From an uncultured Thermoleophilia bacterium (lineage in GTDB: Bacteria; Actinomycetota; Thermoleophilia; UBA2241): a stretch of 64,000 nucleotides of DNA. Each line of letters opens with the position of its first letter. Positions within the stretch are counted from its first letter, which is position 1. Both the position numbers and the translations under genes were made by a program. A model generated the notes under the pieces. It saw nothing but the letters and a program-made list of their open reading frames with translations, made no database searches and was not told where the DNA came from. This document shows positions 9,425 through 26,174 of the stretch, one piece after another. The stretch is taken from assembly GCA_963702475.1 (NCBI GenBank), contig CAVPCT010000004.1, positions 320,001 to 384,000 on the forward strand. Reading direction: 5' to 3'.

Positions 9425-9676
9425 TCAGACTCCGCGCCGCACGAACAGCCTGAGGTAGCCCTCCGGCTGGAGCATCCCGAGGTACTCGTGGCCTGAGCGC
9501 TTGGCCCACGCCGGGATGTCGGCAGCGGCGCCGGCGTCGGTGGCCTGCACCTCCATCACGCCACCCACCGGCACGTCCTTGACGGCTTTGCTGGCGGCCA
9601 GGACAGGCACGGGGCACAGCTGGCCGCGTGAGTCGACCACGCGGTCGGGCCGCAGCTCTGTGAGGTCGTCGGGCAT
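9425..9676 (-). CDS. tusA: TusA family sulfur carrier
   Basis: VDSRGQLCPVP (CPxP), ATD...DIPAW. Confidence 0.88.
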   Translation of the reverse strand: MPDDLTELRPDRVVDSRGQLCPVPVLAASKAVKDVPVGGVMEVQATDAGAAADIPAWAKRSGHEYLGMLQPEGYLRLFVRRGV

Positions 9677-9785
9677 CGTCCTCTGTGTGCGCGGTCGCGC
9701 GGAACCCCAAACCCGCATCCGCCTCGGGTAGCATGGAGCGGCGCTGCGCATGCGGGCGCCGTCGCCGGACCGACAGGAGGCAGCC

Positions 9786-10148
9786 ATGGCCAGAGAGACC
9801 GTCGACGAGTGGATCGCCGAGGTGAAGGCCCTGCCGGGCGCGGACGGTGTCGGCATGATCCTCGTCCACGAGGGCATCGTGCGCGGCCATTCGCGCTCCG
9901 GTGAGCCGGTCACCGGGATGGAGCTCGGGGTGGACCGGGCACAGCTGGCCCGCGTGCTCGAAGAGGCGGCGACGTGGCCTGGCGTCGTCGCCGTCCGCGC
10001 CAGGGTGAACGACGGATCCCTGGCGGTCGGCGACACCATCATGAACGTGCTCGTGGCGGGGGACGTCCGCGAGCACGTGTTCGGCGCCCTCCAGCAGCTT
10101 GTGGGCAGGATCAAGAACGAGGTCGTGACCGAGCTCGAGACGCGCTGA
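9786..10148 (+). CDS. MoaE-like protein (short form)
   Basis: GMILVHEGIVR, G.LAVGD.IM.VLVAGDVR; GGAGG RBS. Confidence 0.7.
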   Translation: MARETVDEWIAEVKALPGADGVGMILVHEGIVRGHSRSGEPVTGMELGVDRAQLARVLEEAATWPGVVAVRARVNDGSLAVGDTIMNVLVAGDVREHVFGALQQLVGRIKNEVVTELETR

Positions 10149-12327: not shown

Positions 12328-12660
12328 GTGGATGAACGTCTGGAACACCAGGTAACGCTACTGCACGCCAGCATCTGCCAGGCGATGGCAGATCCCAAGC
12401 GCATCCTCATCCTGTACGCGCTGAGCGAGCGCGACATGTACGTGCACGAACTGGCAGAGGTGCTGGACACACCTCAGTCGACGATCTCTCGTCACCTCAA
12501 GACGCTGCGCGACAAGAACATCGTGCTCGCCGATCGCGATGGCGCCAGCGTCAAGTACTCACTCGCCGACGCGCGCGTGATCAATGCCCTCGACATCATG
12601 AGGGGTGTGCTGCGCGACATGCTCGCGCGCGACGCCGACCTGGTGCGGCAGCTCGTCTGA
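12328..12660 (+). CDS. ArsR/SmtB family transcriptional repressor
   Basis: ICQAMADPKRILIL, QSTISRHLKTLR; AAGGAG RBS. Confidence 0.9.
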   Translation: MDERLEHQVTLLHASICQAMADPKRILILYALSERDMYVHELAEVLDTPQSTISRHLKTLRDKNIVLADRDGASVKYSLADARVINALDIMRGVLRDMLARDADLVRQLV

Positions 12661-12712
12661 ACGCACGGGGCGGCGGGAGCCCCGACCCTGGGTCTCCCGC
12701 CGCCCCGTGCGT
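12661..12712. terminator. hairpin between convergent genes
   Basis: ACGCACGGGGCGGCGGGAG / CTCCCGCCGCCCCGTGCGT 19-bp inverted repeat. Confidence 0.65.
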
Positions 12713-12751
12713 CCGGCGCCCGGACGCTGGGCTTGTGGCGCCGAGTCTCTC

Positions 12752-13129
12752 TCAGTGCTGGCAGGCGCCTTCGAGCCCGACCACGGGGAGTCCGCCCTTG
12801 ATGAAGGCGGCCACTGCCGTCTTGACGTCGGACCCGTATCCTGCGTGTACGGCGATACCCACCTGATTGAACCCCATGAGCGGGCGGCCGCCGATGCCGT
12901 CCACGACGATGGCGTCGACGTTGTTCTCTGCGAGAACCAGGACGGGGGTCATGCAGCCGCCCTCGACGTGCGGCGCGTTCTCGAGGACGCCAACGGCCGC
13001 CACGCGTCCGTCGACGACGTCGACCATGGTGAAGCAGGCGGCGCGGCCGAAATGGCCCGAACGGGGGGCGTCCAGGCCTCCAGGGTGTTCGGACGGTATG
13101 GCGATGCGCGTGGTCTTGGGATCGGTCAT
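12752..13129 (-). CDS. NifB/NifX-family (IssA/MTH1175-like) metal-cluster-binding protein
   Basis: RIAIPS, SGHFGRA, PH..GGC, GIG.RP. Confidence 0.82.
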   Translation of the reverse strand: MTDPKTTRIAIPSEHPGGLDAPRSGHFGRAACFTMVDVVDGRVAAVGVLENAPHVEGGCMTPVLVLAENNVDAIVVDGIGGRPLMGFNQVGIAVHAGYGSDVKTAVAAFIKGGLPVVGLEGACQH

Positions 13130-13183
13130 GGTCACTCGCTCTCTGCGTAGGGTTGCTCTGTCAACGATGTGAAAGCGTCGCGG

Positions 13184-13732
13184 TCAGAGGCCTCCCGGGC
13201 CCCCACGGCGCTGGCCGCGTCCCGCGCCGCCTCCGGGCCCACCGGCGCCGCGCCCGCGCCCGCCGCGCCCGCGGCCACTGCAGCCGTCTCCCTCTGTCGC
13301 GGGGCCGGCGCCGCAACGCCCCACCGGGTCCCAGCAGGTGACGACGTCGGGCGACCCGCAGGTGGGACAGGCGCCGGGAGGCGCGTCGCCTTCGCCGGAT
13401 GTCCAGAGCGCCCCGCAGCTTCTGCAGCACAGCTTGCGCGGCTCCACACGGTACTGTCCCCCGCCGATGAGGATGGCCTTTCCCGCGACCAGGGCCTCTG
13501 CGATCTTGGCGCGGCCCGCCTCGAGGACGCGGCCGACCGTCTGGCGCGAGACGCCCATCGCCGCCGCGGCCTGCTCGTGGCTGAGCCCCTCGAGATCGAC
13601 GAGGCGGATGGCCTCGAGCTCGTCGACACCGAGCGGGATCTGCTCCAGCTCGCGGCCGGGGACGCCCGCCGGTTTGAAGAGGGTGGCGTGCGGCACGCCA
13701 CCCACGGCGCGCTCAATAGGTGGACGTGCCAA
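13184..13732 (-). CDS. DUF134 (UPF0251) HTH protein with C-terminal zinc ribbon and Gly/Arg tail
   Basis: ARPP, FKPAG, DELEAIRLVDLEGL..E.AA..MGVSRQT, CRSC...CPTC; TTG start with GGAGG. Confidence 0.85.
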   Translation of the reverse strand: MARPPIERAVGGVPHATLFKPAGVPGRELEQIPLGVDELEAIRLVDLEGLSHEQAAAAMGVSRQTVGRVLEAGRAKIAEALVAGKAILIGGGQYRVEPRKLCCRSCGALWTSGEGDAPPGACPTCGSPDVVTCWDPVGRCGAGPATEGDGCSGRGRGGRGRGAGGPGGGAGRGQRRGGPGGL

Positions 13733-13750
13733 GTGATCCTCCATCCGTTC

Positions 13751-13792
13751 TTAGCATATGCTCATTCTAGACGAGCGACGGCGTGCGGGCAA
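13751..13792 (-). promoter_or_regulatory. sigma70 promoter with AGCATATGCT-core operator, copy 1
   Basis: Minus strand TTGCCC-17-TAGAAT running into GAGCATATGCTAA. Confidence 0.65.
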
Positions 13793-13866
13793 AACGCGCC
13801 CGCGCCCGCGTCGGGTCACTGGTTGCGTCGGTCGTGAGGCTTCACAGCTTCACGTGCCGTGAGTGC

Positions 13867-14231
13867 TCAGGCCCAGTGACCGGCGACCGTGGGAGCGATG
13901 GCCTCGGGGAGTTCTCCACGTGCCAGCGCTTCGAGCGCCTCGCGCGCGCTGACGCCGTTGCCGGCCAAGTAGATGTGGATGCCGCCCTTCGACAGAGCCT
14001 TCGTCGCGGTCGGCCCGACGTTGCCGGTGACGACCGCGTTGACGCCGAGAGCGAGCACGGCGGCTGAGGCTTGCGCACCGGCGCCGGCTGGCGCGTCTGC
14101 TCTGGCGATGTTGTCCATGACGGTCCACTCCCCGAGCCGGTGAGGACGACAACGAACCAGCGGGCGCGACCGAAGCGCGGGTCAACGAGCGCGTCGATGT
14201 CGCCGGTCTGCGTGCCGATGGCGATCTTCAT
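13867..14231 (-). CDS. NifB/NifX-family protein (frameshift in a G run near 14131)
   Basis: MKIAI..., VDPRFGRARWF, then GAGAQA...AVVTGNVGP.A..AL, GHW end. Confidence 0.8.
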
Positions 14232-14300
14232 GATTCCGCCCTCCTCGCCCTGATGAGCGCCGAGACCGGCGCGACCCCCTCGGTCGCCGCCGGATTTCAT

Positions 14301-14342
14301 ATAAGCATATGCTCATAATACACGGACCTCGACATGCGGCAA
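14301..14342 (-). promoter_or_regulatory. sigma70 promoter with AGCATATGCT-core operator, copy 2
   Basis: Minus strand TTGCCG-16-TATTAT-GAGCATATGCTTAT. Confidence 0.65.
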
Positions 14343-14390
14343 GCGCCCGGCGGTCGGTAGTATGGAGACGGCGTCGAAAGGAGGCCGAGA

Positions 14391-15053
14391 ATGACATGTC
14401 CCGAGTGCGCCGTCACCGCGTGTTGCCGCGGGAGTGATGGTCCCTTTCCCCGGGACTGCCCGACCAGAGGGCTCGACACTGACGAGCTGCTCGGGGCGTA
14501 CGGCGCATCACCGGACGGCGAGCTGGCGCGACAGGCGGCGCGCGTCGAAGCGGGCGGCTACTGCTCGCTCACACGGCTCGAGGAGATCATGGACTTCGCG
14601 CGCCGCTGCGCGTTCTCGCGGCTTGGTCTCGCTCATTGCATAGGCCTGCAGCGCGAGGCCGCGGTGGTCGTGCGCGTGTTCGAAGCGAACGGCTTCGAGG
14701 TCGTGTCGGTGGCCTGCAAGGCGGGAGCAGTGCCCAAGGAAGCGCTTGGTCTGTCGGATGCGGACAAGGTCTCACCGGGCGAGTTCGAGAGCATGTGCAA
14801 CCCGATCGGACAGGCCCGTCTGCTCGCGCAGGCCCGTACCGAGCTGAACGTCGTCCTGGGCCTGTGCGTGGGTCACGACAGTCTGTTCTTCAGGCATACG
14901 GTGGCGCCGGCGACCGTGCTGGCCGCCAAGGACAGGGTCCTCGGTCACAACCCCATGGCCGCGGTCTATCTTGCCGACGGGTACTACCACGAAAGGCTGT
15001 TTCCATCCGCGCGCGACACGCCCGATGACGACGAGGTCGTCTCCGCCGGCTGA
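14391..15053 (+). CDS. DUF1847 Cys-rich putative metal-binding protein
   Basis: CPEC...C, TRLEEI..FA, GLAHCIGL, CKAG, MCNPIGQA, GLCVGHDSLF, KDRVLGHNP. Confidence 0.85.
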   Translation: MTCPECAVTACCRGSDGPFPRDCPTRGLDTDELLGAYGASPDGELARQAARVEAGGYCSLTRLEEIMDFARRCAFSRLGLAHCIGLQREAAVVVRVFEANGFEVVSVACKAGAVPKEALGLSDADKVSPGEFESMCNPIGQARLLAQARTELNVVLGLCVGHDSLFFRHTVAPATVLAAKDRVLGHNPMAAVYLADGYYHERLFPSARDTPDDDEVVSAG

Positions 15054-15191
15054 CGAAAGGCCGCTAGGCTCCGACGCGATGGCACTGGGCGATGCCGCGT
15101 GCCGCCACGGACAGATTCTCCCTGCGCCCCCGGCGGTCGGCCGCGACCGTTCATGAGCCTGCTCGTGTGCGTGGGGTGCCGAGGTCGACCC

Positions 15192-15233
15192 TTGACGCCC
15201 TCCGCACCGCGCGTATTATGAGCATATGCTCTC
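15192..15233 (+). promoter_or_regulatory. sigma70 promoter with AGCATATGCT-core operator, copy 3
   Basis: TTGACG-16-TATTAT-GAGCATATGCTC. Confidence 0.68.
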
Positions 15234-15309
15234 TACAAAGCGCGTCCGGGGCGCCGTTCGTGACTCGTTGAACGACCGCCGGGCCGCTCAGGCAGATCGG
15301 AGGTCAGTT

Positions 15310-15975
15310 ATGCCGGCCGTGCAGCCTCACCGGAACGCGGGTTCTCTGGACGGCTTTGAGGTGGTGGTGCGCGACCCATGCTGCGTGCGCCACTTCCGCG
15401 ACGACGCGGTCCCTCGCGAGGACGTCGAGCACATGGTGGACCTCACACTGTGCGCGGCCAGTGCGTGTCCCACACAGACGTGGCGCTTCATAGCCGTCCA
15501 GAGTCGGAGTCTCATCCGCGACATGCAGGCGGCCGTGCTCAAGCGCTTCGAGGAGCTCGCGCTGAGGCCGGGGCTGGCTCTCCAGGAACACAAACGGATC
15601 GCGGCGCGTGCCCAGGCGCTGCTGTTCGCCAAGGCTCCGCTGTGCATCGCCGTGCTGTCGCTTCCCTCGAGCTCGCCGATGGAGGAGCTCCTGGAGCTGG
15701 CGGGCATGACCCGGGAGGAGATTGAGCGCCTCTGTGTACGTCCTGAGCTGCAGAGCGCCGGAGCCGCCGCTCAGCTGCTCACCTCCTCTGCCGCCGCCAT
15801 GGGGTACGCGGCCTGCTGGACGTGCGCTCCGGTCATCGCCGGAGAGCGGCTTGAGGAGCTTCTCGGCGTGGAGACGCCCGCACGGCTCGTGGCGCTCGTC
15901 GGCATCGGCCGGCCCGCTGAGCAGCCGACGGCGTCCAGGCGGCTGCCTCTGGAGCAGACGCTCGTCGTGTTGTGA
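15310..15975 (+). CDS. nitroreductase-family protein (atypical, Cys-substituted)
   Basis: VRHF...VP, Q.WRFIAV, QSAGAA.Q.L...A.AMGY.ACW, ALVGIG.P, RRLPL. Confidence 0.75.
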   Translation: MPAVQPHRNAGSLDGFEVVVRDPCCVRHFRDDAVPREDVEHMVDLTLCAASACPTQTWRFIAVQSRSLIRDMQAAVLKRFEELALRPGLALQEHKRIAARAQALLFAKAPLCIAVLSLPSSSPMEELLELAGMTREEIERLCVRPELQSAGAAAQLLTSSAAAMGYAACWTCAPVIAGERLEELLGVETPARLVALVGIGRPAEQPTASRRLPLEQTLVVL

Positions 15976-16113
15976 TCACGGCGATGGCCCCTCGCGACGG
16001 GGTCGGCGGGCCTCACGGCTGGAGTGCCACTGGAGTGGCTATTGAATACGTGCCGGCGGCGTCCCCGACTGAGGGGCGCCGCCGGCATCGTCGTACGGGG
16101 TCTGCAGGTGGCC

Positions 16114-17259
16114 TCAGGCCGTTTCGGCCGCCGCCTTGCGGGCCTTCTCGGCTTGCGTCGCGGCCGCGACCTCGGCGTGCTGCTGCACCTTGGTGAAGTA
16201 GACGGCCAGCGGCCGGTAGGCGAGGTGCGCCCACTTGCCGAACGGCACCTCGAGCACCAGCATCGGCACCACGCCCATCAGGTGGATGATGTACATCACG
16301 TTGGCCGCCTCGTCGGCGCCGGAGCGGTGCAGGATGTTCTGCATCACGCCGGTCACCGCGACCCACAGCAGCAGGTAGAGGAACATCCAGTCGCTCTCGT
16401 GCGAGTGCTGGTGCTGCGGCGAGTCCTTCCTGATCCGCCCGCGGAGGTTGATGATCACCGCCGCGATGAGTCCGACGGAGGCGAGGTAGCCGAACGCGTG
16501 TACGCGCCAGTCGATGTTGGGTCCGGACTGCATCTGGTACAGGAAGAACATGATCAGGATCAGCATCGTGACGTAGCTCAGCATCAGCGCCATATGGATC
16601 GCCCACGGGCGCTTGCGCTCGCACTGGCGCATCTTGGCCTGCGCGAAGAAGTGGTACGGGAGCTGCGGCAGCGCCGCGAGGTAGGACCCCATGCCGGCAC
16701 CCTTGCCGCCCATCGTGAAGTGCCACATGCGCAGGATGTTGATGCCCAGCAGGATCACCAGGACTATGGCCATGGCCCAGTCGAAGCGGTGGACCCAGTG
16801 CGCCGGGAGGAAGGCGTCCTCGCCGTCGTACACACTGAAGCTGCCGCCGTTGAGGATGCCGAACAGGATGAAGCCGATCGCGGTCAGCGCCGCGGCGATG
16901 AAGATCGCGATGACCTCCCAGGCCGGCGAGCGGTAGAAGAGGCCGCTGAGGCCGCTGAAGTCGTACTTGCTGGTGAGCCAGCGGCGCGCGCTCATCATGG
17001 TCTCGCCGGGCTCGGCCTCCTTGGGGCACTGCTCCGAGCACTCGCCGCAGTAGTAGCACATCCACGGCTCGGTCTGGCTCTTGAGCTTGTCCTCCAGGCC
17101 GAGCTGCAGGGCGTGCATGGTCCGCCGCGGGATGACGGTGCTGCCCTCCGAGTGCACGCATACGGCCGAGCAGTTGCCGCAGTTGAAGCACTTGTTGACG
17201 CTGTCGCCGCCATACGCGCGGAGCTCGTCGGCAAGGCCGGGTTTGATTGTCGACGCCAT
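16114..17259 (-). CDS. QmoC-like membrane protein: HdrC-type 2x[4Fe-4S] plus b-heme-type transmembrane domain
   Basis: CFNCGNCSAVC and CYYCGECSEQCP; multiple TM helices containing His; PFGKWAHLAYRP. Confidence 0.8.
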   Translation of the reverse strand: MASTIKPGLADELRAYGGDSVNKCFNCGNCSAVCVHSEGSTVIPRRTMHALQLGLEDKLKSQTEPWMCYYCGECSEQCPKEAEPGETMMSARRWLTSKYDFSGLSGLFYRSPAWEVIAIFIAAALTAIGFILFGILNGGSFSVYDGEDAFLPAHWVHRFDWAMAIVLVILLGINILRMWHFTMGGKGAGMGSYLAALPQLPYHFFAQAKMRQCERKRPWAIHMALMLSYVTMLILIMFFLYQMQSGPNIDWRVHAFGYLASVGLIAAVIINLRGRIRKDSPQHQHSHESDWMFLYLLLWVAVTGVMQNILHRSGADEAANVMYIIHLMGVVPMLVLEVPFGKWAHLAYRPLAVYFTKVQQHAEVAAATQAEKARKAAAETA

Positions 17260-17269
17260 GCCCGCAGCC

Positions 17270-17752
17270 TCAGATGAACAGGTTGACGTTGGCCTCGTCG
17301 GCCTTGCCGAGGTAGGCGGCGACGCCCTCGAACTCGACGCCGTCGATGAGCTCCTCCGGCTTGAAGCCGAGGATGTCCATGGACAGCGTGCAGGCGACGA
17401 ACTTGACGTCCAGTTCACGAGCGCTGTCGAAGAGCTCCTCCAGCGACATGCCGCCGGCTGCCTTGGTGGCCTTGCGCATCATCGGGGCGCCCATGCCGAC
17501 CATGTTCATCTTAGAGAGCCCGAGCTTCTTGGTGCCCTTGGGCATCATGCCGCCGAACATCTTCTGCAGCGTGCTCTTCTGCGAGCCGCCGTTCTGCTTC
17601 TCTGTCTTGCGCAAGATGTTGAGGCCCCAGAAGGTGCAGAAGATCGTGACGTCGTCGCCCATTGCGGCGGCGCCGTTGGCGATGATCAGCGCCGCCATGA
17701 CGCGATCGAAGTCGCCGCTGAACAGGATGATGGTCTTCTTGGTGGTGTCCAT
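17270..17752 (-). CDS. DsrE2/DrsE-family sulfur relay protein
   Basis: FSGDFDR..AA..IANGAAAMG, FCTFWGL, VACTLSMD, GVAAYL. Confidence 0.88.
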   Translation of the reverse strand: MDTTKKTIILFSGDFDRVMAALIIANGAAAMGDDVTIFCTFWGLNILRKTEKQNGGSQKSTLQKMFGGMMPKGTKKLGLSKMNMVGMGAPMMRKATKAAGGMSLEELFDSARELDVKFVACTLSMDILGFKPEELIDGVEFEGVAAYLGKADEANVNLFI

Positions 17753-18036
17753 CAGGAACCCTCTCTCTGGACGGCTTGGTAGGGGAAATAGCCCTCGTCG
17801 TCGACTTCCTTGATCTCCATTATCCAGCCGTACTTGCGCAGGCCCATGACCCAGAAGGTGACCTCCCGGGTGGGCTTGCCCACGGCGGCGGCGATCTGCG
17901 GGATGGTCATGGGGCCGTCGGCCAGGGTGGCGAGGATCTGACGACGCATCGCCTGCTCGTCCCTGATGACCTCGCGCACGGGGCGCATGGCCGGGGCGAC
18001 GGTGGCGTCCACGGCGCCCGGAACAGCGGTGCTCAC
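17752..18036 (-). CDS. small winged-helix protein
   Basis: ILATLADGPMTIPQIAAAVG...WVMGLRKYG; translationally coupled on both sides. Confidence 0.7.
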   Translation of the reverse strand: MSTAVPGAVDATVAPAMRPVREVIRDEQAMRRQILATLADGPMTIPQIAAAVGKPTREVTFWVMGLRKYGWIMEIKEVDDEGYFPYQAVQREGS

Positions 18037-19770
18037 TGGCACACCACCTCCATCATGCCGTCGATCATGCTCTTGATCTGGGCGTCGGTGTAGCCCTGCA
18101 GGTCGATGGCGTCGGACGGGCACACCGGTACGCAGCCGCCGCAGCCCTTGCAGGCCGTCTTGCAGATCGCGGCGATCTCCTTGCCGTCGAGCGGGACCTT
18201 GGTGATCGCGTCGTAAGGGCAGGTGAACTCGCAGGCGCCGCACCAGGTGCAGGCGCCGTCGTCCACGGTCGCGACCAGCGGGTCGAGCTCGGCGTAGCCG
18301 CGCTTGAGGATGGCCGCGCTCTGCGTGACGGCGGCGAGGCCGGAGGCCACGGCCTCGGACGAGGTACGCGGTGCCTGGCAGGCGCCGCAGATGTAGGCGC
18401 CGTCCACGACGGTCTCCACCGGGCGGAGCTTGGGGTGGATCTCGTTGTAGAAGCCGCTCTGGCCGATGGGGAGCTTGAGCGCCTTGGTCAGGCCCTCGTT
18501 CTCGCGCGGCACCATGCCGGTGACCAGCACGACGAGGTCGGCCGTGAGCGCGACCTCTTCGCCCTCGCTCAGGAGGTCGCGGGCCGTGACGGTCACGCCG
18601 CCCTTGGCTGCCTTCTCGATCGTCGGCGGCTCGTCGTCGGGGAACTTGATGAACGCCGAGCCCTTCTCCAGCGCCTCGGCGTACAGGAGCTCGTACTTAC
18701 CGTAGGTGCGGATGTCGCGGTAGAAGTGGTACTGGTGCACGCGGCCGGGCAGGTCGGCGACCAGGGTCGCCGTGTGCACGGCCGAGGTGCAGCAGTAGCG
18801 GGAGCAGTAGGTGTTGCCGCCCTCCACGTCCTCTCCTTGCCGGGAGCCGACGCAGTAGATGTAGGCGACGGTGTTGACCGGGCGGCCGCTGTGCTTCAAG
18901 GGGCCGCCCGCCTCCACCATCTTCTTGAACTCGGCGATGGTGACGACGCCGTCAAGGCCCCAGCCCAGCTCGCCGTCGGCCGGCTGGTACGCGTCCGCGC
19001 CGGTGGCGATGACGATGGAGCCGACGTCGACCTGGATGGTCTCGAGCTGCTCGCCGTTGTGCACGCCGAGCGTGACCTGGTAGTTGCCGAAGCTGCCCGC
19101 CTTGGCGATCAGCTCGGCCTGCGTGAACACGGTGATGGCCGGGTGGCTGCGGACCTTGTCCTCCAGCTCCGCGATGAGCGCCACGCCGTTGCGGCCGTGC
19201 GGGAACATGTCCCGGAACTGGCCGACCCAGCCGCCGAGCATGGCCTCCTTCTCGATGAGGAAGACCTGGAGGCCGATCTCGGCGAGGCCGAGGGCGGCGC
19301 GCAGGCCGGTGACGCCGCCGCCCACCACGAGGCTCTCCGGCGTCGTCTCGACGACGATCGGCTCGAGCGGCTCGGTGAGGCGGGTGCGGTTGATGCCGGC
19401 GCGCACGAGGCGCAGGGCCTTCTCGGTGGCGCCGGCGTGGTCGTCGGTGTGCGTCCACGAGCACTGCTCGCGCACGTTCACCTGCGTGTACTGGAACGGG
19501 TTCATGCCGGCGCGCTTGGCGACGTCACGGAACGTGTAGGTGTGCAGCTTGGGCGAGCAGGAGGCGATGACGAGCCCGTCCAGGCCCTGCTCGTGTGCGT
19601 CGTCGATGATCTCGCTCTGGGTGGCGTCGGAGCAGGTGAACATGGCCGTCTTGGCGACGGTCACGCCCTCTCTCCTTCTCGACGCCGGCGACGACCTCGT
19701 CGACGTTCACGTAGTCGCCGATGTTGCCGCCGCACTGGCAGACGTAGACGCCGATCTTCCTGGCGCTCAT
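18033..19770 (-). CDS. hdrA: HdrA-like flavoprotein with C-terminal 2x[4Fe-4S] (frameshift near 19670)
   Basis: KIGVYVCQCGGNI, FTCS, ASCSP, NVREQCSW, GGGVTG, CVGSR..YCSRYCC, HPKLRPVET, CTWCGAC...CKGCGGC. Confidence 0.85.
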
Positions 19771-22539
19771 GAGGCCACCTTCACTTCCTGCGCCTCGGGC
19801 ACGCTCGCCGTGGCGCCGGCCTCTTTGGCCTTCGCCTTCTCGATGTGCGCCGCCGCCTGCGCCACCGCGGCGCCGGCGTGGAGGATCGAGTCGGGGATGT
19901 CCTTGACGCCCGAGGCCGAGCCGGCCACGAACACGCCGGGCAGGTTGGTACGGCCGGGGTCCATGTCGTCGTCGGCCTCGCCGACCCAGGCGAACTCGTC
20001 CAGGGCCAGGCGGCCCTCGTCGAACAGCTTGGTGACCTCGAGGTTCGGGCGCACGCCTGTGGCCAGCACGACCATGTCGTACTCGGCCTCGACGATGCCG
20101 CCGTCGCCCTCGACGTCCTCGTAGCGGACGACGAGGTTGCCGTTCTCGAGCTCGCTGATCTTGGCGACGCGGCCCTTGATGAACATGGCGCCCATGTCTT
20201 TGGCCTGCGTGTAGAACTCGTCGTAGCCCTTGCCCACGGCGCGCACGTCCATGTAGTGGACGGTCACGTCGGCCAGCGGCAGGGCGCCCATGACGAGCTG
20301 GTTGTGCTTGACGGAGTACATGCAGCAGATGCGCGAGCACAGCGGGTTGTCCACGTGTGCGTCGCGCGAGCCGGTGCAGAGGATGTAGGCGATGCTGTCC
20401 GGCACCTTGCCGTCGCCGGGGCGCACCACCGCGTTGAACGGGCGCGTGGGGGCGAGCAGGCGGTCCATCTGCATGCCGGTGATGACGTTGGCGAACTTGC
20501 CGTAGCCGTACTCCGGCTTGGCGTCCGCGGGGAACAGGGTGTAGCCGGTGGCGAGGACGACCGGCCGCGGCCTCGACCTCGATGTCCTCGCCCTGCTGGC
20601 TGAAGTCGATGCAGTCGGCGGGGCAGATGTCCACGCAGGCGTGGCACTCGGAGCACACGCCGCAGTCCAGGCAGCGGGCCGAGCCGAGGAAGGCCTCGTC
20701 TTCGCTCATCGGACCCTCGGTCTCGCGGAAGTCGGTCGGCGAGGCGCTCATCACGGCGTGCGCTCTCGAGGGGCTCGCGCCGGTCGTAGACGTCCTGGCG
20801 CGCCAGCACCTTCTTCTTGTCCGCCACCGGCAGGTGCTCGTCGAAGAGGGCCGGCGTCCAGGGCCTCGCCCTGCAGGTAGCGGTCGATCATGAAGGCGGC
20901 GCGCCGGCCCTGGCCGACGGCCGTGGTGATCATGCTGGGGCCGGTGACGACGTCGCCGGCGGCGAAGACGTGCGGCACCGCCGTCTGGCACGTGCCGGCG
21001 TCGGCCTTGAGCGTGCGGTTCGGGTTGGTCTCGAGACCGAAGCTCTCGGTGTCGGCGCCCATGCCGGCGGCGACGATGACGACGTCGCACTCGACGGTCT
21101 GCTGCTTGCTCTCGTCGTACTCCGGGGCGAAGCGGCCCTCGGGGTCGAACACGCAGGTGCAGACCTTGAGCTCGGCGCTCTGCACGGGGCCGCCACCGGT
21201 GAAATGGTTCACGCCCCAGCCGTCGTGCAGGACGATGCCCTCCTCCTTGGCCTCTTTGACCTCGAAGTCGTGGGCGGGCATGTCTTCGCAGCACTCGAGG
21301 CTGGCCTGGTGCACATCGGCGGCGCCGAGGCGGCGGGCCGTGCGGGCGGCGTCGATGGCCACGTTGCCGCCGCCCACCACGAGCACCTTCTTGCCGGCCG
21401 AGCTCGACGTCCTTGCCGAGCTTGACGTCGGCGAGGAAGGTGAGGGCGCTCTGGACGCCGCCCTTCTCCTCGCCGGGGACGTTGAGGCGCACGGCGCGGT
21501 GCGTGCCCGTCGCGACGAGCACGGCGTCGAAGCCTCCTGCTGAGCGCGGCCACGATCGTCGACAGCGTGCCGGTCTCGATCTCGACGCCGATGCGCGGTG
21601 ACGTTGGTGACGTCGTCGTCGACGACGTCGTTGGGCAGGCGGTAGGCGGGGATGCCGAGCGCAGCAAGCCGCCGGCCGCGCGCGGCCTTCTCGAGGATCT
21701 TGACGCCGTAGCCCTTGCGGGCGAGCTGGCGGGCGGCGGTGAGGCCGGCCGGGCCCGAGCCCACGACGGCGACCTTCTTGCCGTTCTGCTCGGGCTTCTC
21801 TACGGCGCTTGGTGTCGCCGAGTCCGTAGTGCGTGTCGGCGATGAACCGCTTCAGGCGGCGGATGGGCAGCGGCGCCTTCGAGCTCGCCGCGCGTGCACT
21901 GCTCCTCGCACGGCGCGTAGCAGGCGCGCCCGAGGGAGCCGACCAGCGGCGTCGTCTCCAGGACCAGGTCGAAGGCCTGCTCGTACTCGCCGCTCCGCAC
22001 GCGCGCCACGTAGCCGTGTGCCTTGATGCCCGCAGGGCACTCGTAGCTACACGGCGACACGCCCTCGCGGGTGATGACGGCTTTCTTGGGCACCGCCTGC
22101 GGAAAGGCGATGTAGGCCGCGCGGCGGGAGACCATGTCGGCGTTGAACTCGTCCGGCACGGCCACGTTGCAGGCCATCTCGCACTGGCGGCAGCCGGTGC
22201 AGGCGGCCTCGTCGATGAACTTGGGGTTCTGGCGCACGGTGGCGTGGTAGCCGCCGTTGCCGTCGCTGCGGATGTCCTCGACCTGGGCGTAGGTGAGCAC
22301 GTCGATGTTGGGGTGGTGGGTGGTGGCGCCCATCTTGGGGGTGGAGATGCAGCTGGCGCAGTCGAGCGTCGGGAAGACCTTGCTGAGCAGGATCATCTTG
22401 CCGCCGACGCTGGGCTCCTTCTCGACAACGAGCACCTTGTAGCCCATGTCGCCGAGCTTGAGCGCCGACTCCATGCCGCCGATGCCGCTGCCGACCACGA
22501 GGGCGTCGTACTTGAGCGGTGCCGTTCGACGCCGCTCAT
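19767..22539 (-). CDS. HdrL-like protein: HdrA core with inserted GltD/NfnB-type NAD(P)H oxidoreductase (about 10 frameshifts)
   Basis: GSGIGG, KVFPTLDCASC, CTGCRQCEMAC, PCSYECP, GRACYAPCE, GSGPAG, GGGNVAID, AAGD, CLDCGVCSEC, CTGSR..CSRICC in correct order across frames. Confidence 0.8.
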
Positions 22540-22977
22540 GCCGCCGCCTTCTCCGGCCTGGACGGTCCGAGGCCGGCCAGGGCCGCGCGTACTCGTGCAT
22601 GTAGTTGGTGAAGGGCTCCGCGCACACGGAGCAGATCGCGGCCATGCGCACGCGCTGGGGCTCGTAGCCGTGCTCGATGAGCAGCTCCTGCGCGTCGGTC
22701 ATGATGCCGGCCGTGCGCTCGCCGCAGTCGGGCAGGTACGCGCACTCCTCGCCGTCGGCGGCGATGAAGACGCCGTCGAAGCCCTGCTGCATCGCGTAGA
22801 GGATCCAGCTCGGCTTGATGGCGCTGCTGCACGGAGGCTGATGACGTTGACCGTGGGCGAGTAGTGCATGTGCGAGCTGCCCGCGAGGTCGATGCCCGGG
22901 TCGGAGATGTTGTTGGTGCTGAAGACCAGGATGCGCGGGGCGTAGCCCTGGCCTTCGGATGCCTCAGCCGCGGCCAT
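22536..22977 (-). CDS. MvhD/FlpD-like Fe-S subunit (frameshifts near 22833 and 22585)
   Basis: PRILVF...GIDLAG..HM.Y, L(P)CSS, GFDGVFI, ECAY, P.RV, ICSVC. Confidence 0.75.
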
Positions 22978-22979
22978 CG

Positions 22980-23231
22980 TCACTTCATCTTCTTGACGAA
23001 GAGGCGCATGTAGCCGGGCTCCTCGATCACGCCGAGGTACTCGTGACCCATCTTCTTGGACCACGCGGGGAGGTCCTTGGTGGTGCCGCTGTCGGTGGCC
23101 TGGACTTCCATGATGCCGCCCACGGAGACGCTCGGGATGCCCTTCTTGGCGGCCAGGATCGGGCCGGGGCATGAGGTGCCGCGGGCGTCGACGATCTTCT
23201 CTACCGGCAGGTTGGCGAGATCTTCAGACAT
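22980..23231 (-). CDS. tusA: TusA family sulfur carrier
   Basis: VDARGTSCPGP, ATD.G...DLPAW..K.GHEYLG; AAGGAG RBS. Confidence 0.9.
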   Translation of the reverse strand: MSEDLANLPVEKIVDARGTSCPGPILAAKKGIPSVSVGGIMEVQATDSGTTKDLPAWSKKMGHEYLGVIEEPGYMRLFVKKMK

Positions 23232-23788
23232 GACGCACTCCTTTGTGTTTGTGACTGCTTTCTCAAGCTTGAGCCGCACTGGTCCGCTTCGTGAGCCTGC
23301 GGCTGGTGCCCGGGTCGTGCGGTACTGCTGTGGTGCTCAGGCGCTCGCGGCTCTCGGCGCCTCGGACGGCGCGTCGGCGGTGTCTGCGCGCCGGCCGGCT
23401 CCGTGCCGATGCGGAGGAGGTCCGCGGCCTGCAGCGACTCACCCTGCTCCAGGTACTGCTCCACCAGCGCCTGACGGATGAGCTCGCACGCCTGGATGAA
23501 CTTCTGGTTGGTGACGCGGTAGTAGACGGTCTGCGCCTCCTTGCGAGAGGCGACGAGCCGGCGCTCCTTCAGCACCCGCAGGTGCTGCGACACGTTGTGC
23601 ACCGAGATGCCGATCTCGGCGGCGAGGTCGCCGACGCACTTCTCGCCGTCGCCGATGGCGTGCAGGAGCGCCTGACGGTGCTCGTTGGCCAAGGCCTTGC
23701 ACAACTCGGCGTGCATGTGGAAGACGGCGCTCACGTCGGGAGTCGCAGCCTGTGGCGAAGGGGCGGTGCTGGGGGCGTCTGCGTCCAT
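23201..23788 (-). CDS. ArsR/SmtB repressor heading the Hdr/Qmo-like operon (true stop probably earlier, e.g. near 23337 after a frameshift)
   Basis: LCKALANEHR, NVSQHLRVLK, VYY, QAC. Confidence 0.85.
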   Translation of the reverse strand: MDADAPSTAPSPQAATPDVSAVFHMHAELCKALANEHRQALLHAIGDGEKCVGDLAAEIGISVHNVSQHLRVLKERRLVASRKEAQTVYYRVTNQKFIQACELIRQALVEQYLEQGESLQAADLLRIGTEPAGAQTPPTRRPRRREPRAPEHHSSTARPGHQPQAHEADQCGSSLRKQSQTQRSASCLKISPTCR

Positions 23789-23946
23789 TGGCTCCTTTGC
23801 TGTGTGCGTCCTCGCGTATTTGCGAACTTTCTTATATACGCTACTCCGGAAGGGAGTCAAGTGCAAGCCTTCACAAGACATCGTGCGGGCGGTCGTCACG
23901 TCGCCGGCGAAAGGCCCGACGGACGTGCGTGTGGTAGGGTGCCCCC

Positions 23947-24483
23947 ATGACTGTGAGCACGTTCGAAGGCAAGTCGCCGGTCATCGGCGAGGGCTCCTGG
24001 GTCCACCCCAAGGCCGAGGTCATCGGCGACGTCACGATCGGTGCCCGCTGCTGGATCGGGCCGGGCGCCAGCGTCCGCGGCGACTACGGCACCGTGGTCA
24101 TCGGCGACTGCTGCGCTGTGGAGGACAACTGCGTCGTCCACGCGCGCCCCGGCGAGAAGTGCACCATCGGCTCCTGGGTCACCCTGGGTCACGGCTGCGT
24201 GGTCCACGGCGTCGTGATGCTCGGCGACTACGCCGTGGTGGGCATGAACGCCGTGGTCAGCGACTACGCCCAGGTCGGCGAGTGGGGCATGGTGGCCGAG
24301 GGCGCCGTCGTGCCGCAGGGCGCGGTGGTGCCGGGCGGGCGGGTGGCCGCCGGCGTGCCCGCGCGCCTGCTCGACCGCGAGGTCGATGAGGAGTACCGCG
24401 AGGTCTGGCGCGGCTTCAAGCAGATCTACGTGGGGCTCTGCGACCGGTATCGCGCAGGCTACTCGCCGGTCGACGAGACCTGA
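23947..24483 (+). CDS. gamma carbonic anhydrase-family hexapeptide-repeat protein
   Basis: IGDV.IG, RGD, EDNCVVH, GHGCVVHG, GVPA. Confidence 0.88.
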   Translation: MTVSTFEGKSPVIGEGSWVHPKAEVIGDVTIGARCWIGPGASVRGDYGTVVIGDCCAVEDNCVVHARPGEKCTIGSWVTLGHGCVVHGVVMLGDYAVVGMNAVVSDYAQVGEWGMVAEGAVVPQGAVVPGGRVAAGVPARLLDREVDEEYREVWRGFKQIYVGLCDRYRAGYSPVDET

Positions 24484-25601: not shown

Positions 25602-26174
25602 TCAGGCGACGTCGTCCGCGAGGGTGTAGCGGAGGGCGAGGCGCTCTACGGCCGCGTGCTCGGTGGAGTAGACGTTCACCGACAGCAGTGGCGGGGCGTA
25701 GAGGTGGATGGTCACCAGGTCCTCTCCGGAGAGGTTCGCGAGCTGGTGGATGCCGGCGCGGTCCAGGCCGGTGAGGCCGCCCGCGCTGACGGCCTCTTCC
25801 GCGGCTAGCGCCACCGGTCCGTGCCCGGGCGCCGCGTCATCGGCGGTAGCGAAAAGCCGCGACGTGAGCCTCCCGCGGTGCACGCGGAGAGCGTTCAGCG
25901 AGCCGGCGTGGTCGTGGATCGTCGACCGCTGGCCCGGGCGCCAGCAGAGGACGAGGAGCTCGATCTCAGGGGTGCGGCACACGAGGTTGCGCGCGTAGCC
26001 GTCCCGCGCGAAGACCGATCGATGAGCGATGAGCTCGTCGTCGAGAGTGAGCGCACCGGCGCATTCGAGCAGATGCGCGTAGGTGAGTTCGCTCCCGGGT
26101 GCGCGTGCCAGCTCGAGCAGGAGGCCGTCGAGGGTGAGCGGGCGGGCCCCGCCGTCGGGGGTGGGTCCGGTCAT
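25602..26174 (-). CDS. cysteine dioxygenase-family (3-His cupin) protein
   Basis: YARNL, LCW.PGQ.S.IHDH, IH, TIHLYAPP. Confidence 0.8.
   Translation of the reverse strand: MTGPTPDGGARPLTLDGLLLELARAPGSELTYAHLLECAGALTLDDELIAHRSVFARDGYARNLVCRTPEIELLVLCWRPGQRSTIHDHAGSLNALRVHRGRLTSRLFATADDAAPGHGPVALAAEEAVSAGGLTGLDRAGIHQLANLSGEDLVTIHLYAPPLLSVNVYSTEHAAVERLALRYTLADDVA

Follow-up and report, generated by a model that had tools for sequence, protein, structure and literature searches.

The window analysed here is a 64,000-nucleotide stretch of contig CAVPCT010000004.1 from an uncultured Thermoleophilia bacterium, and coordinates below refer to it unless another locus or contig is named. Between 16114 and 23788 it carries an eight-gene operon on the minus strand, in the order arsR-tusA-mvhD*-hdrL-hdrA-wHTH-dsrE2-qmoC, where mvhD* denotes a remodelled gene of the MvhD family and wHTH a small winged-helix protein. 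Profile matches and domain layout confirm all eight genes, which had been proposed in an earlier note made from the sequence alone, and the junctions described there are also present: GTGA between tusA and mvhD* (or an ATG 2 nt past the stop), followed by ATGA, ATGA, GTGA and TGATG, with a gap of 10 nt between dsrE2 and qmoC. The cluster is real, widespread and uncharacterised; it is a new variant within the modular family of HdrA and type II Qmo complexes, with MvhD* and TusA as its defining parts.

The ArsR/SmtB regulator (23390–23788; PF01022) has cysteines in helices alpha1 and alpha5. Its 3' end is approximate; the open reading frame (ORF) as assembled extends to 23201, probably as the result of an indel, and five relatives end 117–140 codons past the aligned start. 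TusA (22980–23231; PF01206, E 1e-18) is a sulfur carrier with a CPGP motif, and CPxP is present in 32/32 aligned proteins. Downstream of MvhD* (22536–22977; PF02662) are two HdrA-type flavoproteins, one with a GltD/NfnB module as originally described. The HdrL-type HdrA-1 (19767–22539) contains this insert and a flavin adenine dinucleotide (FAD) domain with a DCxxC motif and an equivalent of Lys409; HdrA-2 (18033–19770) has an N-terminal Fe-S region, a FAD-type domain without DCxxC and the lysine, and a C-terminal 2x[4Fe-4S] region. The wHTH protein (17752–18036) was modelled at pLDDT 88 with weak wHTH fold matches, and none of the fold matches listed shows a specific likeness to DsrD; its gene is found too in Mvh-linked paralogous clusters, and the protein is probably an accessory subunit. 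The DsrE2-type sulfur carrier (17270–17752; PF13686, E 4.6e-59) has a cysteine motif conserved in 29/30 proteins and scores 90.8 bits against NF047629, which is under the cut-off. The QmoC-like subunit (16114–17259) joins an HdrC-type 2x[4Fe-4S] domain to six hydrophobic segments (by hydropathy) with His222, His326 and His345, and scores 182.7 bits against NF038018, under the cut-off of 300. Across the family the eight cysteines, His222 and His345 are present in 85/85 proteins and His326 in 81/85, and the closest named homologues (78–84%) are from Thermoleophilia metagenome-assembled genomes.

The third gene had been described as mvhD-like. It does belong to the FlpD/MvhD family (PF02662, matched in two frames), but it is not a normal MvhD, as its cysteine set is remodelled. 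An alignment of 63 MvhD homologues from loci anchored on QmoC shows two groups, canonical MvhD and MvhD*. Canonical MvhD retains a CNWC-type motif and later cysteines as in 5odc_D, and four of these cysteines are the ligands of a [2Fe-2S] cluster. In MvhD* the CNWC motif is gone, one cysteine is kept, and a C-terminal CxxC has been gained at the position of WISASE in canonical MvhD. All three cysteines are invariant (26/26 aligned proteins and 232/232 retrieved homologues), and the Elusimicrobia MvhD* proteins have no others. The fold is that of MvhD (Foldseek match to 5odc_D, TM 0.77); a wider fold search returned generic alpha/beta folds only, and the ESM Atlas matches are to FlpD clusters only. 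The cysteines lie after strands 3 and 4 of the model, where they probably share one edge.

The two groups also differ in their company. In the QmoC-anchored loci MvhD* adjoins tusA in 33/33 cases and canonical MvhD in 0/30; the sequence pattern itself gives 31 and 25, to which two MvhD* with frameshifts and five canonical proteins of the CNWCTY form were added from the genes or the alignment. Among 80 metagenome loci fetched with MvhD* as the anchor, tusA lies directly upstream in all 75 that have at least 500 bp of upstream sequence, and the same holds for 8/8 further genomes; tusA is the sole invariant neighbour of mvhD*. The 13 long MvhD* loci have HdrA-2 and wHTH in 13/13, QmoC in 12, the GltD insert in 12 and DsrE in 11 by the test used there, and neither mvhA nor flxA was found downstream of mvhD* in any of the 13. 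An MvhD* profile matches 7,515 protein clusters and is present in 73/301 sampled genomes of the host's class and 26/36 of its genus, and no cultured organism is named among the 120 + 120 homologues listed. Gene fusions were considered as additional support and set aside, because nearly all of the 21 longer matches are single-member clusters and are probably frameshift read-throughs. A TusA + MvhD* complex prediction scored 0.00, with the controls not folded, and is not used as evidence.

In 75 loci anchored on QmoC, the tusA-mvhD*-hdrA-hdrA-wHTH-qmoC set occurs in Actinomycetota, Desulfobacteraceae, Elusimicrobiota, Krumholzibacteria and one further deltaproteobacterium. The arrangement is not due to chance, as it recurs across these phyla, and the co-occurrence of tusA and dsrE with the cluster likewise holds across phyla. 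Close kin among the loci are not independent; the link between MvhD* and tusA nevertheless spans phyla. Other QmoC loci have the same HdrA-HdrA-QmoC core with a canonical MvhD and MvhAG hydrogenase or Flx genes. The persistent parts of the cluster are TusA, MvhD*, both HdrA proteins, wHTH and some form of DsrE; dsrE genes vary in type and position yet are kept in the cluster, and several DsrE types and duplicate tusA genes occur. The GltD insert is missing in Desulfobacteraceae and Elusimicrobia. At L169 and L170 an HdrC-like protein and a one-CCG protein stand in the place of QmoC, and L174 is the CCG-dsrE2 end of such a cluster. The proposal that the complex joins NAD(P)H and the quinone pool without HdrB is thus true of the window copy but not of the family, in which the insert and QmoC are optional and some members have HdrC and CCG proteins. 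Within one genus of sulfate reducers the operon is patchy, and is present in 6/12 genomes.

Several features of individual loci were noted in the course of this comparison. L169 and L170 comprise two convergent paralogous cassettes of one genome, with ends that are qmoC-dsrE in one and hdrC-CCG protein-dsrE2 in the other. Neighbours of some copies include rhodanese, CsoR-family, CoA-disulfide-reductase-rhodanese, TauE and FadL genes. In L127 (13992–16757) a rhodanese, a CsoR-family regulator and a CoA-disulfide reductase-rhodanese fusion stand right after qmoC, and in L071 (12237–13403), from an Elusimicrobium that has neither QmoC His326 nor menaquinone markers, a gene for a FadL/TodX outer-membrane channel lies past the cluster. 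A conserved protein of ~234 aa that has no Pfam match ends the cluster, after dsrE, in ten Desulfobacteraceae-type loci (L049-L054, L058, L059, L063 and L079).

The window copy is frameshifted. There are 16 single-base indels between 19671 and 22834, of which two are in mvhD* (~22834 and ~22586), 13 in hdrL and one at the start of hdrA (~19671), and alignments show none in three intact relatives. Short-read contigs from related strains restore the frame at four places (~19670, 21398, 21594 and 22834). Elsewhere in the host genome rpsM, rpsD and rpoA of the ribosomal cluster are intact, and sat, on another contig, is broken likewise. Since sat is broken too and the relatives are intact, the indels are probably assembly errors rather than signs of pseudogenisation. 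Intact relatives were used in place of the window copy for the protein analyses. In RNA libraries, contigs of the relatives cover 16102–23927 in four runs, and coverage of the flanks is near zero in two; as these contigs come from other strains, they hint at transcription at best.

Comparison of an intact HdrA-1 (that of relative L014) with Protein Data Bank structures shows that the GltD/NfnB NAD(P)H module is inserted within the inserted ferredoxin domain, and that the N- and C-terminal arm domains are absent. The equivalent of Lys409, a residue of the HdrA flavin site (PMC6405883), is present in at least 58 of 65 ORFs with the HdrA-1 N-terminal motif, and HdrA-2 is without it. The insert carries an xLE motif, of the NADH type as opposed to the NADPH-type YRR (motifs as interpreted in PMC7596348), in 26 of 44 cases including the window lineage. 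In the solved Hdr complexes, as portrayed in PMC12350162, MvhD links flavin and donor, HA4 passes the high-potential electron on to HdrC/B, and a shuttle cluster passes the low-potential one on to HA5. By our own reading of the published numbering, HA5 sits in the inserted ferredoxin domain. HdrA-1 would hold the coupling flavin, since it keeps DCxxC and the Lys409 equivalent, and HdrA-2 would provide the mobile-arm domains, so that jointly the two appear to give one complete set of HdrA ports. Because the inserted ferredoxin domain that houses the GltD/NfnB module is where the low-potential electron exits in the solved complexes, NADH is placed at the low-potential port.

Just upstream of tusA, at 23249–23266 on the minus strand, there is a Rex-like operator, TTGAGAAAGCAGTCACAA, with two mismatches. 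It is one of three sites with two or fewer mismatches in the host genome, and a Rex-like site is found upstream of tusA in 23/104 loci as compared with 0/86 control windows. Rex is released by NADH (PMC5355995), and this favours an NADH-consuming role for the complex. Both this site and the remodelling of MvhD* had been overlooked in the earlier reading. A weaker Rex-like palindrome with three mismatches (23859–23876, minus strand) touches the -35 element of a candidate promoter (TTGACT, 16 nt, TATATA; 23819–23860, minus strand), and sites with three or fewer mismatches are found in 6/28 related arsR upstream regions. A 20-mer over the -10 element is conserved in 24/28 relatives and is a candidate ArsR operator. 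A scan with sigma-70 and terminator consensus sequences gave nothing above chance and did not pick up the promoter candidate. Among the ArsR proteins of the clusters, a cysteine is found in alpha5 in 56/67, in alpha1 in 39/67 and in alpha2 in 11/67, and those of Elusimicrobia have a C-terminal cysteine. The persulfide sensors BigR and SqrR use a cysteine pair in helices alpha2 and alpha5; the window ArsR is without the BigR-type alpha2 cysteine, and scores 48 bits against NF040642, for which the cut-off is 155.

The host genome is 93.8% complete with 6.5% contamination, and a profile search of it found neither an aprA above the cut-off nor dsrA. As had been claimed, the window contains no CCG-domain HdrB, AprAB, hydrogenase or lipoate-binding protein; no CCG match is present on the contig, and the hydrogenase and GcvH/lipoyl-domain matches of the host sit on other contigs. 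Among 36 carrier genomes aprA is found in eight and dsrA in nine, all within ten deltaproteobacterial ones, and neither was found in the 26/26 non-deltaproteobacterial carriers, whose genomes are incomplete. In the aprA regions fetched from sulfate-reducing carriers a canonical qmoC is present in 6/7, separate from the cluster. The host gene set includes acsB, MqnA/D, two NiFe hydrogenases, haem-copper oxidase subunit I, NrfD proteins and three Rex-domain genes, and MqnA/D are also found in 15/17 actinobacterial carriers. A frameshifted sat lies beside a sulfotransferase-like ORF (G000:C7:57881-58590); it was rejected as a sign of an AprAB-type role, being broken, with a sulfotransferase-like neighbour and no aprA in the genome.

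The host has five HdrA modules in total. A second QmoC, with 57% identity to a relative of the window's, belongs to an hdrA-qmoC-hdrA-mvhD-(mvhG)-mvhA cluster (G000:C6:157207-164371). This is a type II Qmo linked to hydrogenase, and a weak Rex-like site precedes it. Three other clusters, one of them Flx-Hdr and two of them HdrL clusters that contain CCG genes, are also present (G000:C6:10459-17466, C5:560916-568839 and C6:174983-181083). Around the operon itself, a second tusA is divergent from a MoaE gene (9425–10148) and probably serves sulfur delivery to the molybdenum cofactor. The segment at 12328–15975 encodes an ArsR, two NifB/NifX-family proteins (one apparently frameshifted), DUF134 and DUF1847 proteins and a nitroreductase, and similar genes flank the operon in close relatives. 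On the other side a hexapeptide-repeat (gamma carbonic anhydrase-like) gene is divergent from arsR (23947–24483; in ten related loci), and a cysteine dioxygenase gene is found at 25602–26165 (in eight related loci).

The statement that the cluster matches neither canonical Qmo, Hdr-Mvh nor sHdr is borne out by gene content, trees and motifs. In a quick IQ-TREE analysis six aprA-linked QmoC proteins form a separate long branch (SH-aLRT 100), and the window QmoC falls among Mvh- and Flx-linked proteins. A FastTree of 39 hand-picked loci places QmoA/B apart from both HdrA paralogues, so that the window proteins lie outside the aprA-linked Qmo clades, as expected under the original proposal; the out-of-frame window hdrL row was ignored there, with intact L014 and L056 standing in for it, and the tree references come only from Desulfobacteraceae-type genomes. 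Type I QmoABC likewise combines a pair of HdrA paralogues of the FAD/Fe-S kind with a fusion of HdrC and cytochrome b, and confurcation has been proposed for it (Ramos et al. 2012, PMC3333476). The QmoC of the operon shares eight cysteines and three histidines, the predicted haem sites, with aprA-linked QmoC, but the AprAB partner of type I, whose genes are mostly next to qmoABC, is absent here, and the [2Fe-2S] MvhD domain that is fused in QmoB is here the separate MvhD* with altered cysteines.

The cluster is closer to type II QmoABC, which occurs with or without Apr and Dsr and whose role is called unclear (Neukirchen, Pereira & Sousa 2023, PMC10504309). It shares with type II modules a QmoC and two HdrA-like subunits that are closer to HdrA than are those of type I QmoAB; the motif is FPTLDC here and FPKLCPP in type I Qmo. 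By comparison of descriptions only, the passages on type II modules in that paper include no TusA/DsrE link, remodelled MvhD, GltD insert or wHTH. The view that the arrangement had not been characterised therefore holds for a cluster with TusA and DsrE, which we did not find described, but AprAB-less type II Qmo modules as such are already published (PMC10504309). We found no literature description of a TusA/DsrE-linked Qmo/HdrA cluster, though the arrangement may be mentioned in Appel 2021, in Pereira 2011 or in the supplementary PDF of PMC10504309; an MvhAGD-HdrAC2 complex is mentioned in PMC13490349, citing Appel 2021.

The methanogen complexes HdrABC-MvhAGD, Fdh-Hdr and Elp-Hdr (5odc, 7bkb and 8rvu; PMC12350162) share HdrA domains and the MvhD fold with the operon, and have a comparable swappable donor arm docked via MvhD. 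Here, in contrast, HdrA is split into two complementary paralogues, there is no HdrB in this copy and no hydrogenase or Fdh arm, and the MvhD cysteines are altered. The flavin site of HdrABC-MvhAGD, with its Lys409 equivalent, is matched in HdrA-1, for which bifurcation is predicted. HdrL of Desulfobacterium autotrophicum is also a fusion of HdrA with a glutamate-synthase small chain, with an NADH site and encoded beside mvhD, but the description in PMC2702500 names no QmoC, TusA or DsrE partners, and the role given there is a genome-based proposal. In sHdr-LbpA systems (PMC11094781) an HdrA-type flavoprotein is likewise encoded with TusA and DsrE carriers that have active-site cysteines; sHdrB1/B2/C1/C2 and lipoate-binding protein are found there and not in this cluster, which instead has QmoC, MvhD* and the NAD(P)H insert. 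The match of HdrA-1 to methanogen HdrA (E 1e-101) is much stronger than its match to sHdrA 6tjr (E 1e-43).

We propose, as a reading with an even chance of being correct, that the operon encodes a three-port HdrA enzyme that confurcates electrons from NADH and menaquinol onto persulfide carried by TusA/DsrE, with the release of H2S. NADH would enter the low-potential port through the GltD/NfnB module, with ferredoxin taking this part in forms that do not have the insert, and QmoC would stand at the HdrC/HdrB high-potential port and connect it to menaquinone. MvhD* would occupy the mid-potential port, where its three cysteines, as a dithiol or an open Fe-S site, may accept and cleave the TusA persulfide, and polysulfide or S0 would be the source from which DsrE proteins charge TusA. 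The computed NADH/menaquinone midpoint of -198 mV is close to the sulfur/sulfide couple (-260 mV, or by calculation about -170 mV at 1 mM sulfide), and the reaction should therefore be near-reversible, and reductive when NADH is high and sulfide low. Support for this direction comes from the non-YRR, NADH-type motif of this lineage and from the Rex-like site upstream of tusA, and confurcation has a precedent in the mechanism proposed for type I Qmo (PMC3333476). We are more tentative, and somewhat more doubtful than of the scheme itself, in suggesting that this is a new class of bifurcating or confurcating flavoenzyme, in which the mid-potential substrate is protein-bound sulfane sulfur at the three-cysteine MvhD* site and not at HdrB.

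A number of observations weigh against confurcation onto sulfur. The reduction of sulfur by NADH plus menaquinol is uphill at standard conditions, and MvhD is the electron entry point in the solved complexes, which points to oxidation (PMC12350162). NADPH-type YRR motifs are found in 18/44 GltD inserts, and in most insert-bearing copies the residue past the QM motif is Asp, not Glu. QmoC and the insert are both missing in one copy (L146), and the CCG protein of the variant clusters could itself be the catalytic site. Most loci with the Rex-like site belong to close kin and are not independent of one another, the host genome has no YeeE importer, and the frameshifts in the window copy may yet reflect strain-specific decay. 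Moreover, His326 is missing in the QmoC of four Elusimicrobia, and neither MqnA/D nor MenB was found in five Krumholzibacteria-like and four Elusimicrobia genomes, or in four further genomes of the 36 carriers. With menaquinone markers missing in these carriers and Elusimicrobia QmoC without His326, the quinone link is not universal in the family.

The most serious competitor, which we regard as possible if doubtful, runs in the opposite direction: MvhD* would be where sulfide is oxidised onto TusA (or persulfide undergoes further oxidation), and the flavin would bifurcate to menaquinone and NAD(P)+ or ferredoxin. The complex would then conserve energy, as a cytoplasmic counterpart of Sqr or sHdr. 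This direction is downhill at the standard state and fits the place of MvhD in every solved Hdr complex, where it is the connector on the donor side (PMC12350162), and the supply of oxidative sHdr and rDsr systems by TusA and DsrE (PMC11094781), as well as the haem-copper oxidase subunit I of the host, the TauE gene beside one copy and the cysteine dioxygenase gene near close relatives. It sits less well with the Rex-like site, which implies induction when NADH is already high, with anaerobic markers such as acsB in the hosts, and with the lack of dsrA, sHdr genes or a neighbouring lipoyl-domain gene that could carry the sulfur onward.

Two further explanations were weighed. TusA and DsrE could be maturation or regulatory factors, acting in the building or repair of an unusual cluster in MvhD* or as a redox switch, of an NADH/ferredoxin:quinone oxidoreductase or transhydrogenase through which no sulfur flows. 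The Rex-like site fits such plain disposal of NADH, TusA also serves cofactor synthesis (as the second tusA of the window, beside the MoaE gene, may do), and TusA might give a fourth ligand or sulfur to an MvhD* that has three invariant cysteines only. We nevertheless consider this unlikely: sister clusters with an equal Fe-S load and a canonical MvhD have no tusA (0/30), the cluster goes together with more than one kind of DsrE and with duplicated tusA genes, and the forms that are without the NAD(P)H insert or QmoC would be left without a substrate pair. It is less probable still that the CxxC of MvhD* reduces some other disulfide, such as the disulfide or persulfide of a low-molecular-weight thiol, or protein disulfides during sulfur or oxidative stress, with the carriers merely scavenging sulfane sulfur. 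A CxxC motif is common in proteins of thiol-disulfide chemistry, some copies have thioredoxin and OsmC genes nearby, and the patchiness of the operon in the host's class and in the sulfate-reducer genus recalls accessory stress systems; but thioredoxin is sporadic (four loci) where tusA is the one constant partner of mvhD*, and a membrane haem subunit would be needless for simple disulfide reduction.

How anaerobes reduce elemental sulfur in the cytoplasm without Dsr or Psr, and which function type II Qmo modules serve where AprAB is missing, are questions for which the cluster offers a specific candidate, with the three MvhD* cysteines as putative active site and TusA persulfide as putative substrate. 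If the complex is indeed such a new class of flavoenzyme, it would constitute a reversible, membrane-coupled cytoplasmic route between S0 or polysulfide and sulfide for thousands of uncultured anaerobes that have no Dsr, Apr or sHdr. The mvhD* gene, which current annotation treats as a normal delta subunit of hydrogenase, is a possible marker for it, and a sulfur role would bring many soil and sediment lineages into the sulfur cycle.

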